DNA from: Mayamaea pseudoterrestris
Lineage: Eukaryota
DNA length: 64,000 nucleotides
Assembly (NCBI GenBank): GCA_027923505.1
Contig: BROI01000025.1
Span: 310,001 to 374,000, forward strand
Direction of reading: 5' to 3'
Shown: one piece after another, positions 32,116 to 46,461 of the stretch
Position numbering within the stretch: the first letter of the stretch is position 1
Layout: every line of letters begins with the position of its first letter
Position numbers and translations under genes: made by a program
The notes under the pieces: model-generated
What the model was told of the DNA's origin: nothing
Seen by the model: the letters and a program-made list of their open reading frames with translations, nothing else
The model's database searches: none

Positions 32116-33549
32116 ATGACCATGGCGACCTCTGCGCTAACAGTAAACTCAGTCGCTAGCAAATTGCGGCTGGAGCATTTCCAGGAGCCGCTACAAGTTG
32201 ATGAGGAGACGAGTCTGCTGGGAAAGTCAAGCGACAAGCCTACGAAAGTTCGCAGGCAATGGTGGCTCGCTGCCATACCGTGCTTTTGCGTCTTGGGAGT
32301 CGGCTCCATCATGCTGCTCTTTGTTCCCGGACATCATCAGTATCATCATCACCATATCGTTCGTAGATATCGACATGAAGGTCATCATCATGGGTTTCGG
32401 CGGTCTCATCCTAAAGACAGCAATAAGCATGCGAAAAATACTGACAACGCTGAAGATAACGGATCCATTTCGGTGGCCTTTATTGGAAACTCAATGCTTT
32501 ACTTCAATGACATTCCTCGCTTTGTAGAAACACTTTCAAATGGTCGAATGACGCAAGATTCTTGTCTACACGGAGATGCCACGTTGCATAGCATTTTGGA
32601 GACTGGGAATGGCATGGCTGTCAAATTCAACACGGTGAATGCAGCAGGTGAATCTTCTCAAAACAATTCACAATTTCAGCAACCAGACCTTGGCGCATGC
32701 ACTGTTCCGATGCTCTTGTTTGGACAAGACGATCGGCTTGAAGGACAGTTGCGGGAACGTCAAGTCGAAGCAAGCCTGAATGCTAGCAGCACCAATGAAA
32801 CGTCGTACCTCAAAGACGATGGAACGAATCCCTGTTTCCAAAATGGATCTTTGTCGACCTACTACTACGACTATATCAACAAGCAAGACTCGTCAAAATC
32901 TCCTCATTACGACTATATTGTTTTGAACGACAATACGCGCAATCCAGGTCGTCCGCAGACGCAGCAATCTGGCATGAACATTCTACAATCTACATACTTA
33001 CCCTGGCTCATTGAAACCAATGCCACATTGATCTTGCTCGACACGCACGCTTACCTTGCTCCGTCTCGCAATTTGACCGAGTTTGTAAACGTTCCAACCT
33101 TTACAAGTCGCACTTTTCAGGGCTACTCGCAATATGCGAAAATGTTGGCGGAAACCTTGCCGCTCGCACAAAAGCCGCGGCTGGCACTCTCCGGCATTGC
33201 CTTTTTGTTAGTGTGGGAGGAAGACTACGAAACGTGGACAAAACTCTTTCATACGGATCAGTTGCACTGCAGCCCCATGGGTTCGTATTTGGAAGGTCTC
33301 ATGATTCATTACGCCATCTGGCAGCGCCTGCCGGATCCTACTTTGGCAATGCCAAACGACATGTCAAGTCTTTGGGCGAACGCTCGTGTCATGCAACCGG
33401 CGGACGAGCCGCCGCATCCGTTTCCGACTCGAAACCAGGCAAAGTATTTGTATCATGTGGCGGATCGTGTGGCGAAACGTGGCGTGCGACCAAAGTCGCT
33501 CGTGCTGGTAAAGGATGAACATGAAACAGTATTCGGGGCGAATCCATAG
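32116..33549 (+). CDS. Membrane-anchored SGNH/GDSL-like hydrolase or acyltransferase
   Basis: TM anchor, His-rich stem, block I FIGNSML and C-terminal D-x-x-H (TDQLHCSPMGSYL). Confidence 0.75.
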   Translation: MTMATSALTVNSVASKLRLEHFQEPLQVDEETSLLGKSSDKPTKVRRQWWLAAIPCFCVLGVGSIMLLFVPGHHQYHHHHIVRRYRHEGHHHGFRRSHPKDSNKHAKNTDNAEDNGSISVAFIGNSMLYFNDIPRFVETLSNGRMTQDSCLHGDATLHSILETGNGMAVKFNTVNAAGESSQNNSQFQQPDLGACTVPMLLFGQDDRLEGQLRERQVEASLNASSTNETSYLKDDGTNPCFQNGSLSTYYYDYINKQDSSKSPHYDYIVLNDNTRNPGRPQTQQSGMNILQSTYLPWLIETNATLILLDTHAYLAPSRNLTEFVNVPTFTSRTFQGYSQYAKMLAETLPLAQKPRLALSGIAFLLVWEEDYETWTKLFHTDQLHCSPMGSYLEGLMIHYAIWQRLPDPTLAMPNDMSSLWANARVMQPADEPPHPFPTRNQAKYLYHVADRVAKRGVRPKSLVLVKDEHETVFGANP

Positions 33550-34168
33550 AAACTAGAGTATTCAAGCGGAGGAAGATAGACTTTCAAACGGAGTCGATTT
33601 AAATGTTACTAATTGTCTTAGCGTTCAATGACCTTGCAACGATCCTTCAGTGCGTGCGGAGTTGACCAGGCCGTCCCATATTTCGTGCATGTGATAGCTT
33701 CGCGTCTCATAATGACATGACCTGGCAATTTACTATCAATGAGCTACCTGTTCGAACTGATATGATCATCATTGTTAGCAGAAGCCGGAACTATAGCTCT
33801 GGAGTCACGAAGGAGTCGTTTTTCTGGTGCCCTTGCGGGAAGATTCCGACCCTAACAAGTGGAAGATTCGATTTGGCCATGACGTGTGCTCCGGAAGAAA
33901 AAGCGTTCGACAACAACATCATACACACAGCAATACACAATCTGCTCATTCATTTGACTGCTGAAAGGGGCCTGTTTGTAGCGACTCTGAATCGAGAAAA
34001 CGCAGGAGCTGTATCGCTGAAGCTGGTTGCACATCATTCAACTTGGCGGTAAGTAACGACAATGCGACGAGCTTGATTCGTTTGGATCATACAGAAACAG
34101 AAAGCTTATGTTTCGTTGTTATTTTCTCGTCTGCTCAGCTTCACGACAAGGGACTACATTACTTTGTA

Positions 34169-37100
34169 ATGTGCAAGACGTCGGAGGAACTCGCGTCAAT
34201 GTCAAAAGTTGAACCCAAAAGCACTTTGGTCGAGTCAGTCCGTCATGTGCAGCAACCAAATGGAAGCATAGTGGGACGAGAGGTTGCTCGGATTGTCTTG
34301 CAACAATACGACTCACTAGTGTCGGCTATTCCTTCGGACCTTTCATCGACGGCTGCTTTAGCAAGTATTGACGGCCGCCTTCCCATTGACCATGGTCGCA
34401 TTCATAGTTTCGTATCAGACATGGGCCGGCAGCTGCATGAGCTTGGCATTGGGCGCAAACACCGCGTCGCTGTGATTCTGCCGAATGGACCAGAACTGGC
34501 GCTTGCAATTCTCACGATCAGTCAGTGGGCGAGCTGCGTTCCACTCAACGCTAATGGAGCCTTGAGCGAGCTGGAGGCTGACTGCAAGCGCTGCCGCGCG
34601 GATGTAATCTTGGGGCCTTGTTGTAGCACGACCAAATCTGAGGAGGCAATGTGCGGGACAGCTGTCATACAGGAGCAAGCTCGCCTTTTCAACGTTTTGC
34701 AAACAGAAGGCTATGGAACGATTGATTCTTTTGCTGGGTTTTGTCATGTCCAAAAACTTGCCAACCGGCTAGACATACCGTTTTGTGGACTAGCGGCAAG
34801 CAAAATGGAGGCTGGAGTTTTTCAGCTTCGACCTTTGTCGAATCCTTTACTGGCAAGCGAAGCACAGGGCATGGAGTCGAGAAAAGGTCTGCTGTGGAGC
34901 ATGCTTGGCGGCAAAGACAAGCCATCGGCGGTGAGTTTGGAACCGACAGAGACATCATCGCTGCTGTCGACCACTTCCTCATCGTCATCACTTGGCTCGG
35001 AAGAAAATACTTCGAACGATGACAAGGAGAGTCGGTATGCGCCGAATCAGCACGACGACGAAGTCCTTGTCTTGTTCACGTCGGGCACTACAGGGAACAA
35101 GAAATTGGTGGCGCACCGCTTGGGAGACATGCTTGTAGCGGCTGCGACGATCGCGCTGAGTTGGAACTTATCGCCATTGGATGTAAACTGCAATATGATG
35201 CCGCTCTATCACGTTGGAGGTATTGTGCGTCAAGTCTTTTCTCCTATTCTTTCTGGCGGCTGTGTGATTTGTTGCCCCGCATTTGAACCGACTTTGTTTT
35301 GGGCGTTGCTGAGAAACAGAGCGTTTAACTGGTACTACGCTGCTCCAACGATGCATAATATGATACTCCAGACAGGCAAGGAATTACTTGCGGGCGATGC
35401 AACAGTTGTAACAACCCTTAAACCAAAGCTTCGCATGATTGCGAATGCTGCTGGTGGCCTCCTGCCTGCGCTCGCCAAGGAACTAAGAGAAACGTTTGGT
35501 GCGAACGTTCTGCCTTCATATGGAATGACTGAGTGCATGCCAATTAGTTCCCCACCTTCGAATTATGCACTTGAAAAGCCAGGCACTAGTGGAGTGCCCG
35601 TTGGACCGGAGGTAGCAATTATTGATCCTGTGACCATGAGAAAGTATCCAGCAGATATGGAAGGACCTATATGCGTCCGAGGCGACCCGTGCTTTCGAGG
35701 ATATAGTCTGAACTATCTCGAGCCAGAAGGCAACGTATCGTCACCCTTCTTGGCGGACGGCTGGTTCGATACAGGCGACTTGGGATATCTCGACGTCGAT
35801 GGCTGGCTTTTCATTAGCGGCAGGTCGAAGGAAGTCATCAATCGAGGCGGCGAGCTAATTAGTCCACTGGAAGTGGAAGAAGCTGTGACTAGTCACCCAA
35901 GGATTCAATCATGCGTCGCATTCTCCGCTAGGCACGATATTTTGCAGGAAGTTGTCGGTGTTGCTGTCGTTCCTGCACCTAGCATGCCCAGACTAAGTTT
36001 GGATGAGCTACATTCATTTCTGAGCGATCGACTGGAGAATTCTAAGTGGCCTCAATGCATCGTTTTTATGGATGACCTGCCAAAGTCTTTTACGAACAAA
36101 GTATTGCGCCTCAATCTTGCTCAACGTTTGGCCCTTCCACATTTCTCGGACTCCATGTCCTCTGCGGAAAAGATTTTTGAAGCAAACTGTCCAAGGCAAG
36201 GAACGCCGCTTGATGAACACATTAAATGCAAGAAGCTCTTAGCGCAGGCATCAACCGTGGAAGCTGTGCTACGTCGAGAATTGTTACGCGACGCTGCACA
36301 AAAGATCATTGTTGTTCCGCATCCTATGCGAGCCGGATGTCTTGTCGCGCATGTTCACAAAATCGATCGCAACGAGCTGGCTACTGTAGCAAAGTCCTTG
36401 CTGGATGGTTTCATGGTCCCTAGCCATATTTGTAACATGACTTCGCCGGAAGCGTTCGTTAATTTGCCGAAGCCGTCAGATTCGATCGTGGCAATCGCCG
36501 AGGGTGGCTTCAACGGGAAGGTTGACTCCACCGAGTTAAAGGTGCGACAGATCATGATGGATATTCTTGACCTTGACTTTATTTCGTCAAAGTCCAATTT
36601 CTTTCAGCTGGGCGGCAGTTCTATGCTCGCATCCCAGTTGGCAAGCAAGATTCGAAAAGAGTTTGACGTTGGATTTACTGGAGCAGATGTTTTTCAAAAC
36701 AACAGTGTCGCAACTATGGCGGAACTCATCAACGATCGCACCGAGGGAAAAGGTTCACACTTAGCAAAAGAAGGTTATGGCGTGAACGAAGTCGGTACAA
36801 ATGCTCCATTGGCTAAACTCACGGCAGATCGACTTGAACCGGAGAACAATATACTGAAGTCGGCGTTTCAACTGATGCCCATTTGCGTGGTCCTTCCAGT
36901 CTGGCAGCTATCGCGATTCTTCTTTTACTTCATGTTGTTGCTACAAATGCTCAGAAGCGTGCCGGCGGCACAATCGCTGCTGGAACGTTTCACCTTGCTT
37001 GAATTTGACTACTACATGACTGCGCTTGTCATGACTGTCATCAGCTTTCATCTGACATGGATTTTTGTCACTCCGCTGCTTTTCGTTGTTCTCAAATGGA

Positions 37101-39274
37101 TTGTGATAGGAAAATACCGCGAAGGCAGATACCCCTTATGGAGCTGGTATTATTTGCGTTGGTGGTTTGTTGATGTCGTGCGCAAGCTGGTTGGCCGTGG
37201 CATCTGGGGCTCGAGTGAAGTCCTCTTAGCATTCTACTATCGGCTGCTTGGGGCGCGTATTGGACGTGGCGCACGCATAAGCCTTGACGCAGAAATAGCT
37301 GAGTTTGACCTCGTAACGATTGGTAGAGACGCTGCCATTGAATACGCTACGTTACGGCCATTTGGAGTTGACAATGGATGCATGATTATGGGTACTGTCA
37401 GCGTGGGTGATCGATCGAGTGTTGGATTTCGATCGGTGGTTGCTCCCTTTACCGAAGTTCCAGCGGATACGCATTTGGGGCCTGTCACGAGCAGCTATGA
37501 AGTGAGCAGTGCAGCTGATCCCGTGCATCGACGTTATAACCGACACAATTTGCCAGCACCGAGTACCATTTCACAATTTTTTATTGGGGGGCCTATTGTC
37601 CTGACAGTGAATATCTTATCGTCACTTCCTGCTTGCTTTGTGCTCTATCTTTTGGTGACCATGCCTTTCCACTATGACATCTCAGCAGGTGATCTTGGTG
37701 ACCTGATGGAGTGGCTTTGTGATGCAAGGCGCATTCCTTTCTACATTGGCATTCGAGTTGTTCGAGCTCTCGTCGCTCCATTCGTCAAAATTGGCGCCGC
37801 AATTTTCATCAAGAAATATATTGTCGGAAAGTTTGAACCTGGTTGTAGAGGTACAACCGAATGGCACCTGCTGCGCCATTGGTTAATGGCTACGCTTCTT
37901 TCACGGCAGAACATTCAGGAGGTAACTGATCTTATTGGCCGTCACTACGAGCTGGTTAGTACCTTGTATCGCTTGCTCGGCGCGCAGGTTGGCAAGCGTG
38001 TGTTTTGGCCTGGCCACCAACCCATCTTCAGTGGTGAGTTTGACCTAATACAAATCGGCGACGACGTGGTCTTTGGTTCGCGTTCAGCCATCTTCTGTGC
38101 CACGACCGATAGTTGCGAGCAGGTGATTCTTAGCGCTGGATCCAATTTGTCAGACAATTCAATTTTACTTCCTGGGTCAGTGCTCGGGAAAAATGTGGTC
38201 CTCGGTTCGAACTCGGTCGGCCCTGCGGGCTGGTATCTGCCGGAGCAGAGCACGTGGTTTGGATGCCGGGCTGGCGAGCCTGTTCTTCTTGAGCGAGGCG
38301 TTGAAGGCGACTTTATACCCCCTTTGCTTGCCAAAACCCGCAAAGTTTCCGACTTTCCGTTTCATGGTGACGCGACAACGCTTCGACCGTTTGGTAAGGC
38401 GTTTTACATGAAACAGGCACCTTACAAAGTTCTTTCGCTTGGTTTTATCATCATATATTCCTTCGCATGCAAGGCTGCCATTGTCACCTTCCATACATTC
38501 CCCGTGCTTGCCGGAATTCATGGTACAGCTGCGATTATCTACGGCTGGACGCCTGCTGATCGCGATTTTGACAGTGTCGACATTTCTGCGCCGCGGTTTT
38601 ACTTCACGTTGCTTTCGGTCATGATTGTTTCCAACCTGATTCGCATCGTAGCATGGCTTGCCATTGAATACTTCGCTAAGTGGTTCATCATTGGGCAAAG
38701 GCAGGAAGGACAGTACGATTACGACAAGTCAGACTATTGCCAGCGCTGGGAGCTCTATCAGCTCTTGGCAAAGGTTCGCAACTTTGGACGCATGAACTTG
38801 ATGGAGTTCCTCGCAGGGACGCCATTTTTGGTCACCTACTTTCGCATGTTGGGATGTCAAATTGGGAAGGACTGTTGTCTGTACCCAAGTGGAGGCGATC
38901 CGTACATGCCCGAGGTGGACTTGGTCGAAATGGGAGATGGCTGTGTCGTGGACATGGCATCGATTGTGTGTCATTTGAATACTGGTGGTCATTTTGAGCT
39001 TTGCAAGATTACCATGCAGGACAACACTACATTGCGATGTCGGTCGCGAATCCAGCAAGGCGTCGTCATGGAAACGGGAAGTATGTTGTTGGAGAAGAGC
39101 TTGGCCATGACGGGAGAAGTTTGTGATGCCGCTTCGGTGTGGCAAGGATCTCCGGCCAGTCGAGTTCACTTGTATGATCGAACAACGGTAACAAGCTTTG
39201 GTTCAAGCGATTATGGAAGTACCGGCGCCCACCAGGTAAACATGTCAGCTTCAGCGGTGCATCATGCAGCCTGA
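34169..39274 (+). CDS. Membrane-bound single-module NRPS-like enzyme (A domain - carrier domain - Pls-type terminal domain)
   Basis: A domain: LFTSGTTGNKK, PLYHVGG, SYGMTEC, GWFDTGDLG, GRSKEVINRGGE. Carrier: NFFQLGGSSMLA. Three TM + beta-helix modules beginning LKWIVIGKYREGRYPLWSWYYLRWW..RLLGARIG, IKKYIVGKF..RLLGAQVG and AKWFIIGQ..RMLGCQIG, ending WQGSPA. First ATG at 34169; the frame is open from 34043. Confidence 0.9.
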   Translation: MCKTSEELASMSKVEPKSTLVESVRHVQQPNGSIVGREVARIVLQQYDSLVSAIPSDLSSTAALASIDGRLPIDHGRIHSFVSDMGRQLHELGIGRKHRVAVILPNGPELALAILTISQWASCVPLNANGALSELEADCKRCRADVILGPCCSTTKSEEAMCGTAVIQEQARLFNVLQTEGYGTIDSFAGFCHVQKLANRLDIPFCGLAASKMEAGVFQLRPLSNPLLASEAQGMESRKGLLWSMLGGKDKPSAVSLEPTETSSLLSTTSSSSSLGSEENTSNDDKESRYAPNQHDDEVLVLFTSGTTGNKKLVAHRLGDMLVAAATIALSWNLSPLDVNCNMMPLYHVGGIVRQVFSPILSGGCVICCPAFEPTLFWALLRNRAFNWYYAAPTMHNMILQTGKELLAGDATVVTTLKPKLRMIANAAGGLLPALAKELRETFGANVLPSYGMTECMPISSPPSNYALEKPGTSGVPVGPEVAIIDPVTMRKYPADMEGPICVRGDPCFRGYSLNYLEPEGNVSSPFLADGWFDTGDLGYLDVDGWLFISGRSKEVINRGGELISPLEVEEAVTSHPRIQSCVAFSARHDILQEVVGVAVVPAPSMPRLSLDELHSFLSDRLENSKWPQCIVFMDDLPKSFTNKVLRLNLAQRLALPHFSDSMSSAEKIFEANCPRQGTPLDEHIKCKKLLAQASTVEAVLRRELLRDAAQKIIVVPHPMRAGCLVAHVHKIDRNELATVAKSLLDGFMVPSHICNMTSPEAFVNLPKPSDSIVAIAEGGFNGKVDSTELKVRQIMMDILDLDFISSKSNFFQLGGSSMLASQLASKIRKEFDVGFTGADVFQNNSVATMAELINDRTEGKGSHLAKEGYGVNEVGTNAPLAKLTADRLEPENNILKSAFQLMPICVVLPVWQLSRFFFYFMLLLQMLRSVPAAQSLLERFTLLEFDYYMTALVMTVISFHLTWIFVTPLLFVVLKWIVIGKYREGRYPLWSWYYLRWWFVDVVRKLVGRGIWGSSEVLLAFYYRLLGARIGRGARISLDAEIAEFDLVTIGRDAAIEYATLRPFGVDNGCMIMGTVSVGDRSSVGFRSVVAPFTEVPADTHLGPVTSSYEVSSAADPVHRRYNRHNLPAPSTISQFFIGGPIVLTVNILSSLPACFVLYLLVTMPFHYDISAGDLGDLMEWLCDARRIPFYIGIRVVRALVAPFVKIGAAIFIKKYIVGKFEPGCRGTTEWHLLRHWLMATLLSRQNIQEVTDLIGRHYELVSTLYRLLGAQVGKRVFWPGHQPIFSGEFDLIQIGDDVVFGSRSAIFCATTDSCEQVILSAGSNLSDNSILLPGSVLGKNVVLGSNSVGPAGWYLPEQSTWFGCRAGEPVLLERGVEGDFIPPLLAKTRKVSDFPFHGDATTLRPFGKAFYMKQAPYKVLSLGFIIIYSFACKAAIVTFHTFPVLAGIHGTAAIIYGWTPADRDFDSVDISAPRFYFTLLSVMIVSNLIRIVAWLAIEYFAKWFIIGQRQEGQYDYDKSDYCQRWELYQLLAKVRNFGRMNLMEFLAGTPFLVTYFRMLGCQIGKDCCLYPSGGDPYMPEVDLVEMGDGCVVDMASIVCHLNTGGHFELCKITMQDNTTLRCRSRIQQGVVMETGSMLLEKSLAMTGEVCDAASVWQGSPASRVHLYDRTTVTSFGSSDYGSTGAHQVNMSASAVHHAA

Positions 39275-39929: not shown

Positions 39930-42311
39930 ATGAAGTTCAGCCATGCTGCTCTGTTAGTCGTGGCGACTGCGGCAAGCGCCGCTGCCTTTGTGCCTGCTTC
40001 CATTGCCAAGCAACGTACCTCATTCGGCCTGGTGACTGCCTCGAGGGCTCCGTCGTCGCGTCTCTTTCTCAGTGCGACGGTCGAAAAGCCAAAGGAAACG
40101 TTTGAATTCACCAGCGATGTTGGTCGAGTCATGGACTTGATCATTAACTCGCTGTATAGTGATAAGGTGAGTGTTTGGAACGGATTTTGTGTTGTGACGT
40201 TGACGAGTTTTGTGCAATCTAACAGTTAATCCCTGTTTGACAGGCAATTTTTCTGCGAGAGTTGATCTCCAACGCTGCTGATGCTTGCGACAAGAAGCGA
40301 TTCTTGAGCCTCACATCCGAAGGTGCAACCGACACCCCACCAACCATTAAAATCAAGGCGGACGAAACATCCAACACACTCATTATTGAGGACGGCGGCG
40401 TCGGCATGACTCGCGACGAACTCATCAATAATCTTGGTCGCATTGCACAGTCGGGAACGAAAGCTTTCATGGAAGCCTTGGGCGAAGGCAAGGCTGACGT
40501 CAATTTGATTGGTCAGTTTGGTGTCGGCTTTTACTCGGCGTACCTTGTCGCCGATCGCGTCGAAGTAGTCACCAAGAGCATGCAGGAAGGAGCCAAGCAA
40601 TTGCGATGGGCATCGACGGCTGACAACTCTTATACGATTGAGGATGATGACTCGGAACCAATTGAAGGATCAGGTACTCGGCTGATTTTGCATTTGAAGG
40701 ATGATGCATCCGAGTATTTGCAGTCGTCCAAGATTGAGGAACTTTTGAACCGATACTCCGAATTCATTGAGTTTCCCATTTCAGTGTGGAAGAGCAAGAC
40801 GGAATACAAGCGAGTACCCGACGAGGAAGCCAACAAGGAATTGAAGGAAGGCGAAGAGCCAAAGATGAAGACGGTTCCGGAAACGACGGAAGGATTCGAG
40901 CTCATCAACACGCAGAAACCAATTTGGCTACGACCCGTCAAGGAAGTGGAAGAGCAAGAGTACAAGGATTTTTACAAATCCGCCTTTCGTGCATCGTATG
41001 ACGAGCCAATGAAGTGGAGCCACTTTGTTTTGGAAGGCCAGGTGGAGTGCAAGGCACTACTGTACATTCCAGGCATGCTTCCATTCGAACTATCCAAAGA
41101 CATGTTTGACGAAAACTCTCGCAACATTCGTCTCTACGTTAAGCGCGTCTTTATCAATGACAAGTTTGAGGACCTCATGCCGCGATGGCTCAAGTTTGTC
41201 CGCGGCGTTGTCGATAGCAATGATTTGCCGCTGAACGTGAGCCGTGAGATTCTGCAAAAGTCAAAGGTCTTGTCGATTATTAACAAGCGCTTGGTCCGCA
41301 AATCACTTGATATGATCCGAGAGATTGCCGAAGACGAAGACAAGTCCAGGTACATTATGTTTTGGAACAACTGTAAGTTTTCGCTCGCATCAGTGGACAG
41401 TTAAACCACGTGACGACTAAGTCTGACATGCCAGCTTTTACCTTCTCAATTCAGTCGGCAAGTACTTGAAGGTCGGTATTATCGAGGACGACAAGAACAA
41501 GAAGGACATTGCTCCTCTTCTTCGCTTCTTCTCAAGCAAGTCCACGGAGGAGTACACATCATTGGACAATTATGTCGCTGCCATGCCGGAGGGTCAAAAA
41601 GCAATCTACTACGTTACGGGTGATGGCGTCGAGAATGCTTCCATGTCACCGGTGATTGAAAAGCTAAAGTCGCGAGGATACGAAGTCCTTTTTGCGACGG
41701 AACCATTGGACGAAATCATGATGGAAGGTCTCCGCAGTTACAAGGAGAAGGATATCATTGATGCAGCCAAGGAAAATTTGAAACTTGACGACGACGAAGA
41801 GGCTGCAAAGAAAAAGGAGCAACTAAGAGAGGAATACAAGGAAGTCGTTGACTACCTTGAGGTGCTTTTGAAGGACAAGATCCAAAAGGTTGTGGTTAGT
41901 GATTTACTTGTTGACTCTCCAGCGGCACTTGTTCAAGGTGCCTATGGCATGAGCCCCACCATGCAGCGCTACATGAAAGCTCAGGCAGTTGCATCTGGAC
42001 AAGCTGGCGGCTTTCCTGACATGAACAAGGCAGTTCTTGAAATCAATCCGAAACACGCAATCATCAAGGACATTGATCGTCTGGTGCAATCGGGCGATAA
42101 GGACTCGCAAGAACTGAAAGACTGTGGACTGCTCATGTATGACGTTGCAGCCATGACTAGTGGATACGATGTTCCAGATATGAAAGAGTTTGCCAAGCGC
42201 GTCCTTCAGTTAATGGATGACAAGGTGACAACAGCAGCGTCGGAGTCTGGCGAGACCGAGGAGCTTGAAACGAAAGATGCTGAGCTTGTGGATGACTCCG
42301 TACTCGAGTAA
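39930..42311 (+). CDS. HSP90: Plastid HSP90 (HSP90C/HtpG-type), three exons: 39930-40166, 40244-41372, 41455-42311
   Basis: MKFSHAALLVVATAASAAA-FVP presequence. IINSLYSDK|AIFLRELISNA, IGQFGVGFYS, DLPLNVSRE, FWNN|FGKYLK are restored across two GT..AG introns. No MEEVD or KDEL at the C-terminus. Confidence 0.95.
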
Positions 42312-44949: not shown

Positions 44950-46461
44950 CTAGTACTGAACACTCTGCGAATATGAATCATTGTCCTCCTGCGCAGTCGC
45001 CTTGTCATTCTCCACTCCCTCATTATTTCTCGCACTAGAGTAAAACTTGGTTCGCTCCAAACCTTGCCAGGCGACACGGACACCTTGCTGCAAGACGCTA
45101 CGTCTCCAGTCTGGATGTTGCAAGTAAAAGGCTGGCAGCATGGTGCGCTTGGCCCACACCATGGGGCTCGTTGAGGAATTCGTCGTGGAATGATTGCCAT
45201 GTTGATAGGCGGCATTCTCCGTCATCAACGCATGTCCAACGAATATGGAAGGTATTGTTCCAAACTCTTGCACAAAGAACAAACTATTAGCGTCATGCTC
45301 GTGTAGCAAGTCATGAAAATAGGATCCATACAAGCCCTTGACCTGCTCGTAGCCAGACGCGACGGAATTTTCGGTCGGCAGCAATGAGTTTGGAAACCAG
45401 CGCTGCAACTGCTGAGCGTAATTGTTCACGTATTTGTCGCTTGGAGCTTGGGAAAAATCAGTCTCGCCTTCATCTTGCTGCTGATCAGAAAGACTAGCGT
45501 TGCCTTGATTGGAAGCAAAATGCGCACCAGGCAGCAAGGTGTCGCGACCACTCGGACCCAGGCCAGTGTGCACGTCAATCCAAGTAATCGCATCATGCGT
45601 TCCATGGCTCGCATCATCGTGCTTATCCTTCTTGTGCTGATGCAGATGCTTGCTCAGATACTTTGTCAACCACTCCTCGAGTAGCTTGGTCGAAGGTTCC
45701 AACTGACTGCCACCGTAAAAAATGCCCTTGTCATTATAATATTGACCAGCCACCATGGCAGCCTTGATGCTCGCAAGGCCATGATGCGAAAGGTTCCACA
45801 CGACGCGCGGCCAAAACGATGCATACGCGCTCCATAGTGACGGAGCTTGATGCGGATTGAACAAGTCTTGGAGCTTGGCATATGATTCGTGACTCGCATT
45901 ATGATGTTCATGTATACTTTCAAACTCTTGCTTGGTCAGTGCGTTTCGATTCAAGTCAACGTTATGTTCATTGACGCGTCTATAGTGAGCCATGCCGTAG
46001 GGATTGACGGCGTGCACCAAGACGAGCGTCGGTCGGTCGGAATGCTTGGTTTTGAACGACGGAGAATCCAGCAGCGCCAGCTGAACGGCCGACCCCGCGT
46101 AACCTTCCACTCCATGCACGCCCGAGGAGTGAATCACTAGTCCAGGTTGTGATCCAGGTAAAATGCAAATGTCCATGTAGTAAGACTCTTGATGCAGATT
46201 GTCCTTGTAGATTAAAATACTTTCTAGTTTCGCCGACGGAATGAGCTGCACTGCTCGCTGGAATCGCTCACGGGCCTGCGTATAATTGTCGCTAAAGTAG
46301 TCGCAAGCATTCACGGACACTTCATCGCCTTGTGCCTGTGGAAGCCACACTAGTTCGACGCCATGGCAAGGATCATGGTGCGATTTGATCAAGTAGGCTG
46401 TTCCGGCAGCGACGAGGACTGTCATGAGCGATGATAGCGTAACGCAAATGGAGATGAACAT
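44950..46461 (-). CDS. M14-like zinc carboxypeptidase (DUF2817 family), secreted or anchored
   Basis: SSGVHGVEG (HxxE), NPYG...RRVNEHNVDLNRN, IDVHTGLG, QEFGT; hydrophobic N-terminus. Confidence 0.85.
   Translation of the reverse strand: MFISICVTLSSLMTVLVAAGTAYLIKSHHDPCHGVELVWLPQAQGDEVSVNACDYFSDNYTQARERFQRAVQLIPSAKLESILIYKDNLHQESYYMDICILPGSQPGLVIHSSGVHGVEGYAGSAVQLALLDSPSFKTKHSDRPTLVLVHAVNPYGMAHYRRVNEHNVDLNRNALTKQEFESIHEHHNASHESYAKLQDLFNPHQAPSLWSAYASFWPRVVWNLSHHGLASIKAAMVAGQYYNDKGIFYGGSQLEPSTKLLEEWLTKYLSKHLHQHKKDKHDDASHGTHDAITWIDVHTGLGPSGRDTLLPGAHFASNQGNASLSDQQQDEGETDFSQAPSDKYVNNYAQQLQRWFPNSLLPTENSVASGYEQVKGLYGSYFHDLLHEHDANSLFFVQEFGTIPSIFVGHALMTENAAYQHGNHSTTNSSTSPMVWAKRTMLPAFYLQHPDWRRSVLQQGVRVAWQGLERTKFYSSARNNEGVENDKATAQEDNDSYSQSVQY

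Follow-up and report, generated by a model that had tools for sequence, protein, structure and literature searches.

A predicted membrane-bound polyester synthetase in the diatom Mayamaea pseudoterrestris, probably related to the polymalate synthetase of Aureobasidium

The diatom Mayamaea pseudoterrestris carries a gene for a large membrane enzyme that, on balance, we take to be a polyester synthetase on a single polypeptide, one that would attach L-malate, or a hydroxy-dicarboxylic acid like it, to its carrier domain, polymerise it and export the product. The gene lies in a stretch of 64,000 nucleotides (the window; contig BROI01000025.1, positions 310,001 to 374,000) as an open reading frame (ORF) at window positions 34169-39274 (+), and all features of the protein given below are on this strand. 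Its product of 1701 amino acids (P0001) consists of an adenylation (A) domain of the acyl-coenzyme A (CoA) ligase type, a carrier or thiolation (T) domain, and three modules in which a pair of membrane helices is followed by a left-handed beta-helical segment. An earlier note on this DNA, made from the sequence alone, had proposed that a non-amino carboxylic acid is activated and then polymerised or transferred, which fits everything found here. The closest relative, an Aureobasidium protein that matches the description of the fungal polymalate (PMA) synthetase, was missed in that note. The kind of enzyme is known from fungi; its diatom member is undescribed.

The Aureobasidium pullulans protein (P0366, 1690 residues) surfaced in a search started from a homologue of the ascomycete Zopfia, and heads a 90% cluster of 126 sequences with 1688-residue A. 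melanogenum proteins among the members listed. It and the diatom protein are collinear in the A domain, the T domain and all three modules, 1469 residues aligning at 36% identity (E 0). Three papers deal with the fungal enzyme in the sections seen, where its identification is credited to Wang et al. in 2020 and where the synthetase is said to have been identified only then, without a biochemical study (PMC11905612, PMC9210645, PMC11286673). According to the same sections, the PMA synthetase of A. melanogenum ATCC 62921 (QHD40385.1) is an NRPS-like (non-ribosomal peptide synthetase-like) membrane enzyme encoded by a gene of 5049 bp, with A-like, T and C-like (condensation-like) domains and six membrane regions, but no thioesterase. 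It was found through deletion and complementation, deletion affecting PMA production, and the route proposed leads from malyl-AMP via malyl-S-enzyme to ester bonds (PMC11905612, PMC9210645, PMC11286673). P0366 and P0411 match this enzyme in genus, size and architecture and presumably represent the published synthetase QHD40385.1. The diatom protein is likewise similar to the published synthetase in size (5049-bp gene against 1701 residues) and has the same layout, again with no thioesterase; it differs in its host and in a lineage-specific insert in the A domain, at residues 137-256. The Aureobasidium and diatom proteins belong to the same clade and are identical at all eight mapped positions of the substrate pocket. 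As identical pockets make the same substrate likely, the diatom enzyme should take L-malate if the fungal enzyme does.

The A domain (residues 65-655, 34361-36133) matches Pfam AMP-binding (E 1.9e-50) and, at residues 568-640, AMP-binding_C. Its best NCBIfam families are the FadD7-type, long-chain and malonyl-CoA ligases, with TIGR01733, the model for amino-acid adenylation, absent from the 25 best NCBIfam matches, and its best solved relatives are all oxalate-CoA ligases, namely 5ie0 (1.1e-60), 6qjz (1.5e-60), and 8aff (5.1e-53). Family matches and solved structures thus agree with the resemblance to acyl- and oxalyl-CoA ligases that had been noticed before. The motifs that had been pointed out are found at residues 345-351 (PLYHVGG, 35201-35221), 450-455 (SYGMTE, 35516-35533) and 557-562 (INRGGE, 35837-35854); the motif scan that gave these also gave the phosphate-binding motif TSGTTGNKK at residues 304-312 (35078-35104), in which T304, S305, G306, T307, G309, and K312 are invariant across 15 family members. 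By HMMER alignment, Lys644 (36098-36100) corresponds to the catalytic Lys500 of the oxalyl-CoA synthetase AAE3, and a lysine is present here in 30 of 34 panel sequences. The insert in the N-terminal half of the domain (34577-34936) is variable, serine-rich and partly low-complexity and has no counterpart in AAE3; it varies in length from one diatom to another, and only P0002, the relative with 80% identity, shares its sequence.

That the three best solved matches are oxalate-CoA ligases, and that one fungal homologue is annotated as 'Oxalate--CoA ligase', could mean that the protein activates oxalate, as an oxalyl-CoA ligase of the AAE3/Pcs60 kind that has acquired further domains by fusion. 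The residues of the pocket make this very improbable. In Arabidopsis AAE3, the oxalate pocket is described as consisting of Val215-His216, Cys288-Ser289, Ala313-Met314, His319, and Lys500, of which Ser289 and His319 are reported to be conserved in oxalyl-CoA synthetases only, according to the section of the paper that deals with the pocket (PMC8905533). When these positions are mapped through the HMMER alignment, the equivalents in the diatom protein are Val349-Gly350 in the PLYHVGG motif, Ala427-Ala428, Gly452-Met453 in the SYGMTE motif, Pro458 shortly after it, and Lys644. The catalytic lysine is retained, but the oxalate-specific Ser289 and His319 are replaced by Ala428 and Pro458 and His216 is replaced by Gly350; because the oxalate-specific residues are lost, oxalate is disfavoured as a substrate. 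The exchange of two histidines for glycine and proline should moreover lead to a larger pocket. In addition, oxalate has no hydroxyl group to polymerise, and the carrier and terminal domains would be left without a role. AAE3, with about 515 residues, is soluble, stands alone and makes a CoA thioester, whereas in the diatom protein a carrier and a membrane domain are joined to the A domain, which keeps the catalytic lysine and the core motifs of these closest solved relatives. The eight positions read V-G-A-A-G-M-P-K in all 10 diatom-clade sequences, in both Aureobasidium sequences and in 17 of the 34 panel sequences overall; the other 17 either differ at one or two positions (12) or are gapped or degenerate (5), and not one of the 34 has a histidine at either of the AAE3 histidine positions.

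The absence of the FDxS aspartate of NRPS A domains, which the earlier note had also claimed, stands in one respect only. No FDxS is found at the classical spacing after the TSGTTG motif, but the residue equivalent to the aspartate is not settled through sequence tools alone, since both MAFFT and HHalign pair the classical AFDAS with AFEPT at residues 371-375, whereas a hidden Markov model (HMM) of the segment, run in HMMER, aligned the flanking motifs only. The pairing was regarded as a chance match, as AAE3 has FSAT at this place, outside its published pocket. We take the spacing of AFEPT to be that of other acyl-CoA ligases, and the position of Val349 is presumably the equivalent of Asp235 of GrsA-PheA. 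The assignment of the A domain to the acyl-CoA ligases is independent of this equivalence.

The carrier domain (residues 791-854, 36539-36730) matches Pfam PP-binding with an E of 4.2e-11. Its predicted phosphopantetheine site is Ser818 (36620-36622), the last residue of the motif FFQLGGSS (residues 811-818) and the same serine that had been singled out before; it is a serine in all 34 panel sequences, and in the Aureobasidium relative the serine of GGDS aligns with it. Condensation or thioesterase families (PF00668-, PF00975-type) were not found at E <= 0.1 in the Pfam scan, as the earlier note had stated for canonical domains of these types. The A and T domains are separated by a family-specific segment (residues 656-790, 36134-36538) with a conserved FEAxCP motif in the 15-member alignment. 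This segment is kept in the acyl-type family including its bacterial members (FEAxCPxxGxPL motif), and about residues 663-738 within it have no counterpart in classical Pls according to HHalign; it may be an extra small domain. In Novosphingobium percolationis, a gene for a 4'-phosphopantetheinyl transferase of the Sfp type (L001:7946-8875 (+)) overlaps the 3' end of the homologue, which fits a working carrier.

The C-terminal half of the protein contains six hydrophobic segments in three pairs (Kyte-Doolittle), and these coincide with six long helices of 28-42 residues each in an AlphaFold2 model that covers residues 870-1701, was made from an alignment of 42 sequences, and has a mean predicted local distance difference test score (pLDDT) of 89.6 and a predicted TM-score (pTM) of 0.88. 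In the model each pair of helices is followed by a mixed helical and beta-helical segment. Module 1 (residues 895-1130, 36851-37558) has helices at about 903-930 and 942-983 and a beta-helix at about 986-1100; module 2 (residues 1131-1410, 37559-38398) has helices at about 1133-1164 and 1186-1219, a helical part and beta-helix at about 1225-1375, and an FGSR motif at 1302-1305; module 3 (residues 1411-1701, 38399-39271) has helices at about 1424-1458 and 1474-1508, a beta-helix at about 1512-1668 and a disordered tail. The modules are significant internal repeats (module 1 against 3, E 7e-10; module 1 against 2, E 7e-8). Hydropathy, model, repeats and fold matches all bear out the three modules of membrane helices and left-handed beta-helix that had been seen in the sequence. 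The Pfam family Hexapep gives only a weak match, at residues 1327-1350 (25.4 bits against a cut-off of 27), and against solved structures the sequence of the C-terminal domain gives weak matches to gamma-carbonic anhydrases and hexapeptide proteins (best E 8.1e-05).

By fold, the model is clearer. When it was compared with 48,161 representative chains of solved structures (VIA-align), the top matches were left-handed beta-helix proteins only, the best of them falling on module 3: QdtC 3fs8 (Z 14.5, root-mean-square deviation 2.6, 107 residues aligned), chloramphenicol acetyltransferase (Z 14.1), maltose O-acetyltransferase 3srt (Z 13.3), and serine acetyltransferase 4n69 (Z 12.6), with the acyl-carrier-protein-dependent LpxD and LpxA at Z 9.7 and Z 9.2. 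Foldseek matched hexapeptide acetyltransferases and gamma-carbonic anhydrases, and a search of the ESM Atlas added only unnamed hexapeptide clusters. The domain as a whole has no fold analogue in these searches, the best Foldseek TM-score being 0.12 (query-normalised) and the VIA-align matches all being single beta-helix domains. The beta-helix relatives use pantetheine thioesters, either acetyl-CoA or acyl-carrier protein (acyl-ACP), as donors for O- or N-acylation, judging from the titles of the entries, and a pantetheine thioester is likewise the donor expected for the diatom enzyme. Each soluble segment of the diatom protein resembles, in fold (Z up to 14.5), acyltransferases such as LpxA/LpxD and the serine, maltose and galactoside acetyltransferases, but these are trimers of separate soluble chains, whereas the diatom protein has three diverged copies in one chain, alternating with membrane helices. 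Two residues of module 3, Glu1582 (38912-38914) and His1602 (38972-38974), are the same in all 54 sequences compared, 45 of the acyl type and 9 of the classical Pls type, and His1602 is a candidate for the general base.

These parts suggest a mechanism. The A domain, in the cytosol, would adenylate a small hydroxy-dicarboxylic acid, most likely L-malate, and would pass the acyl group to the phosphopantetheine arm of Ser818 to form a thioester. The three left-handed beta-helical segments could jointly form one acyltransferase-like catalytic body, in which the hydroxyl of a free monomer or of the growing chain would attack the carrier-bound thioester to form an ester bond, a step that could be iterated without a thioesterase. 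Such a repeated attack of hydroxyls in the terminal domain would parallel that of amines in Pls and PosA, as these are presented in the part of the review seen (PMC10522769). Since the number of membrane helices that precede each soluble part is even, these parts would all lie on the same side as the A and T domains, presumably in the cytosol, and the six helices would hold the enzyme in the membrane and probably lead the polyanion to the outside.

The earlier note had described the layout as that of the Pls-type synthetases. As to homology this holds, the terminal domain matching the Pls/PosA model TIGR02353 in three stretches with an E of 3.2e-59, but the protein lies outside the equivalog: the score of 201 bits does not reach the curated cut-off of 423.1, and the protein falls in a sister clade. 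A classical Pls/PosA-type synthetase with a cationic homopoly(amino acid) such as epsilon-poly-L-lysine as its product would have the same domain order and terminal-domain topology, with A and T domains, six membrane helices in three pairs that separate three soluble beta-helix segments of about 180 residues, a carrier, and neither a condensation nor a thioesterase domain. The secondary-structure pattern of the model also fits the AlphaFold description of PosA given in section 13 of PMC10522769, Glu1582 and His1602 are common to both, and HHalign of 15 acyl-type against 7 classical sequences extends over the whole length (probability 100%, E 1.1e-70, 1136 columns, 21% identity). That the diatom protein is itself such an enzyme is nevertheless highly unlikely. 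Full-length classical genes score 528-806 bits with TIGR02353 and occur in 10 of 81 sampled Actinomycetes genomes. Between the diatom protein and the classical protein P0434, whose A domain is of the amino-acid type and which has AFDAS, BLASTP aligns only short local stretches, with 27-31% identity and a best E of 9e-11. Pls and PosA have an amino-acid-type A domain with a diamino-acid code that starts in Asp, whereas that of the diatom protein is of the acyl-CoA-ligase type; the diatom protein further differs in its extra A-T segment of about 135 residues and in its clade. In Pls and PosA the bond is an isopeptide bond in a cationic polymer, whereas in the diatom enzyme it would likely be an ester bond in an anionic one. 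The diatom protein is thus a Pls homologue outside the Pls/PosA equivalog, in a separate sister clade.

Classical Pls and the acyl type are distinct paralogous lines in bacteria too. At E <= 1e-20, the acyl type was found in one of the 81 sampled Actinomycetes genomes, that of a Kitasatospora sp., which has both: a classical gene (L017 2197-6249 (-)) with an AFDAS motif and 806.5 bits with TIGR02353, and an acyl-type gene (L010 3454-8133 (+)) with a PLFHAGG motif and 97.6 bits for the best piece or 176 bits for the whole protein. The tree gives the same division. It was built from the last 880 residues of 54 sequences (42 proteins and 12 ORFs from loci; 837 columns) with a quick IQ-TREE search under LG+G4 and with SH-aLRT support, and IQ-TREE gave a warning about the long branches that separate the two families. 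In this phylogeny, a kind of check that the earlier note had suggested, 45 acyl-type rows stand apart from 9 classical Pls rows (SH-aLRT 100), and the diatom protein groups in the acyl-type clade with the fungal members. The 10 diatom-clade rows are monophyletic (100), 13 named fungal rows and two unnamed ones form one clade (98) with chytrids and Mucoromycota at its base, and 7 bacterial rows and two unnamed ones form another (100). The order among the diatom, fungal and bacterial groups is weakly supported (81-90); because of this and of the long-branch warning, no conclusion is drawn on transfers or their direction. The pattern would fit long vertical descent within diatoms and within fungi.

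The acyl-type family is widely distributed. A search with residues 870-1701 against 1.84 billion cluster representatives gave 2509 proteins at E <= 0.001, 1217 at E <= 1e-10, and 372 at E <= 1e-30. Full-length representatives with 31-40% identity come from the chytrids Polychytrium, Nowakowskiella, and Physocladia, from Halteromyces (Mucoromycota) and Trametes (Basidiomycota), from many Ascomycota, namely Zopfia, Erysiphe, Geopyxis, Ophiocordyceps, Verticillium, Aspergillus, and Epichloe, and from the protist Artemidia, the dinoflagellate Gymnodinium and a Myxococcota metagenome bin. Bacterial relatives of the terminal domain were found at 10 loci (30-35% identity), three in Novosphingobium, one in Kitasatospora, two in Myxococcota, three in Planctomycetota, and one in Dormiibacterota; the flanking ORFs of the Novosphingobium locus show no relation to those of the Kitasatospora locus. 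In an NCBIfam scan of 13 further proteins (11 eukaryotic or metagenomic, 2 bacterial), 12 share one profile, an A domain like FadD7 or malonyl-CoA synthase together with TIGR02353 at 150-225 bits. The thirteenth, the Epichloe protein P0216, has TIGR02353 at 185 bits and an A domain without a family match at E 1e-30. P0216 and P0426, from Epichloe bromicola and E. festucae (1702-1706 residues), belong to the acyl-type clade but have a degenerate A domain, with AMP-binding at just 41.6 bits and with the pocket and catalytic-lysine positions not kept in the panel alignment. They are distinct from the published poly-lysine synthetase gene of Epichloe, which is 3.9 kb long.

This distribution bears on the function. 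A great many of the fungi with a member of the family are not known to produce polymalate, and given this spread the product could be different or the function more general. It is therefore possible, although we consider it doubtful, that the same family and chemistry serve another job, in which the diatom enzyme polymerises another hydroxy- or dicarboxylic acid or transfers a single acyl group from the carrier to a non-polymer acceptor, for instance a protein, a lipid of the membrane, or a polysaccharide of the cell wall or the extracellular space. Most of the beta-helix relatives are N- or O-acyltransferases of the single-turnover kind, with sugars, amino acids, and antibiotics as substrates; the family, found in fungi of all major phyla, a dinoflagellate and bacteria, is far wider than known polymalate production; and the pocket position of AAE3 Ser289 varies between Ala, Gly, and Ser across its members. 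The fungal enzyme, moreover, is known from gene deletion and was never isolated, and the malate specificity of its A domain has not been demonstrated in vitro, according to the part of PMC9210645 that deals with it. Further points weigh against a polymalate synthetase in the diatom. QHD40385.1 is not among the 15 listed of the 126 members of the P0366 cluster, and polymalate and diatoms are joined nowhere in the literature searched, save for a single incidental co-occurrence of the terms. Conserved-charge columns, compared between acyl-specific and classical-specific positions (basic 7 against 4; acidic 5 against 5), give a mixed picture without a clean reversal between the families, which is not decisive for the charge of the acceptor. 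On the other side stand the pocket, with its identity between diatom and Aureobasidium at every mapped position, and the fact that Pls and PosA, the only biochemically tested relatives in the part of the review seen, are iterative polymerases (PMC10522769). With these, the polyester synthetase remains the reading that we prefer.

The gene itself has the marks of a functional diatom gene. As the earlier note had it, the ORF is single and intronless: its frame is uninterrupted over 1701 codons and the stop codon TGA (39272-39274). The frame is open from 34043, and upstream of it the nearest stop in frame occupies 33962-33964. Its first ATG, at 34169, gives a start Met that is common to P0002, the closest relative in the protein collection (80% identity). 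An ORF without intron and bacterial homologues at 30-35% identity might also be expected of a gene that does not work in the diatom, through bacterial contamination, recent transfer or decay to a pseudogene, but there is hardly anything to recommend this. The guanine and cytosine (GC) content of the ORF equals that of the surrounding window, its neighbours are ordinary eukaryotic genes, the diatom sequences form one clade apart from the bacterial one, and the frame of 5.1 kb is intact with all catalytic motifs. The 120 best protein matches listed have 48-80% identity, and all seven that carry organism names are from diatoms, namely Seminavis, Nitzschia, Bacillariaceae sp., Mayamaea, Stephanodiscus, Pseudo-nitzschia, and Cylindrotheca; two homologues among these 120 are complete ORFs from MMETSP transcriptomes. 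The family is thus conserved across pennate and centric diatoms.

Among the neighbours, an Hsp90 gene lies about 1 kb downstream at 40262-42311 (+). It is split into two ORFs, one ending at 41404 and the next starting at 41583, whose matches follow one another along the Hsp90 profile, which points to an intron or a frame change in the approximately 180 bases between them. The ORF of 477 residues directly upstream (32116-33549 (+)) is rich in His over one stretch, contains a single hydrophobic segment close to the N-terminus and gives no Pfam match, and an ORF at 44950-46461 (-) strongly matches DUF2817 (E 8.2e-69). The neighbours in the window, which are FG-GAP, endonuclease/exonuclease/phosphatase-like, Hsp90, DUF2817 and leucine-rich repeat (LRR) proteins, include none that is related to the synthetase. 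Contigs from four runs of one study, which do not bear on transcription, showed no joints. Contigs of the runs X1, X3, and X4 break at 33644, 37679, and 39311 and then continue in unlike sequence, the same in two runs each; the break at 37679 falls within the synthetase ORF. A second haplotype or a structural variant may lie behind the breaks, or they may be artefacts of assembly.

The novelty of the diatom enzyme is smaller than the earlier note implied, because its layout and a non-amino-acid A domain have already been described in Aureobasidium. The statement that no product of such an enzyme is characterised in diatoms agrees with the literature searched, in which none was found; searches for a diatom poly-L-lysine synthetase, for TIGR02353, and for diatom NRPS with AMP-binding and hexapeptide also gave nothing. 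A genome-mining survey mentions, in the part seen, several unexplained proteins with an A domain and a carrier in diatom genomes (PMC7073580), and the only diatom NRPS-like enzyme studied, according to the part of a report that describes it, has a different layout, A-T-R-R (PMC13194791). Pls-like proteins in fungi and 'lower eukaryotes' are treated by Patel and Gulick, in the section concerned, through their amino-acid codes (PMC10522769). In the comparison presented here, the 'Pls-type' terminal domain divides into two old branches, one with amino-acid and one with acyl-CoA-ligase-type substrates, both of which occur in a single Kitasatospora genome. This two-branch view aids the annotation of proteins that are now labelled acetyl-CoA synthetase-like, oxalate-CoA ligase or hypothetical.

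Polymalate has been reported from a slime mould and a few fungi only, according to the sections seen of two of the papers on the fungal enzyme (PMC11905612, PMC9210645). We tentatively propose, as a plausible extension that we hold with some reserve, that diatoms, together with dinoflagellates, chytrids and other protists that carry the gene, produce poly(beta-L-malate), or an acidic polyester close to it, and export the product. If this is true, it would be a widespread yet overlooked eukaryotic biopolymer, and in diatoms it could matter for the cell surface, for the binding of calcium and other metals, for extracellular polymer pools, and for marine dissolved organic carbon. A gene family that is conserved in diatoms, with a pocket identical to that of the fungal enzyme, leads to a testable prediction: that one of the major groups of marine primary producers may contain an unreported polyanionic polyester.

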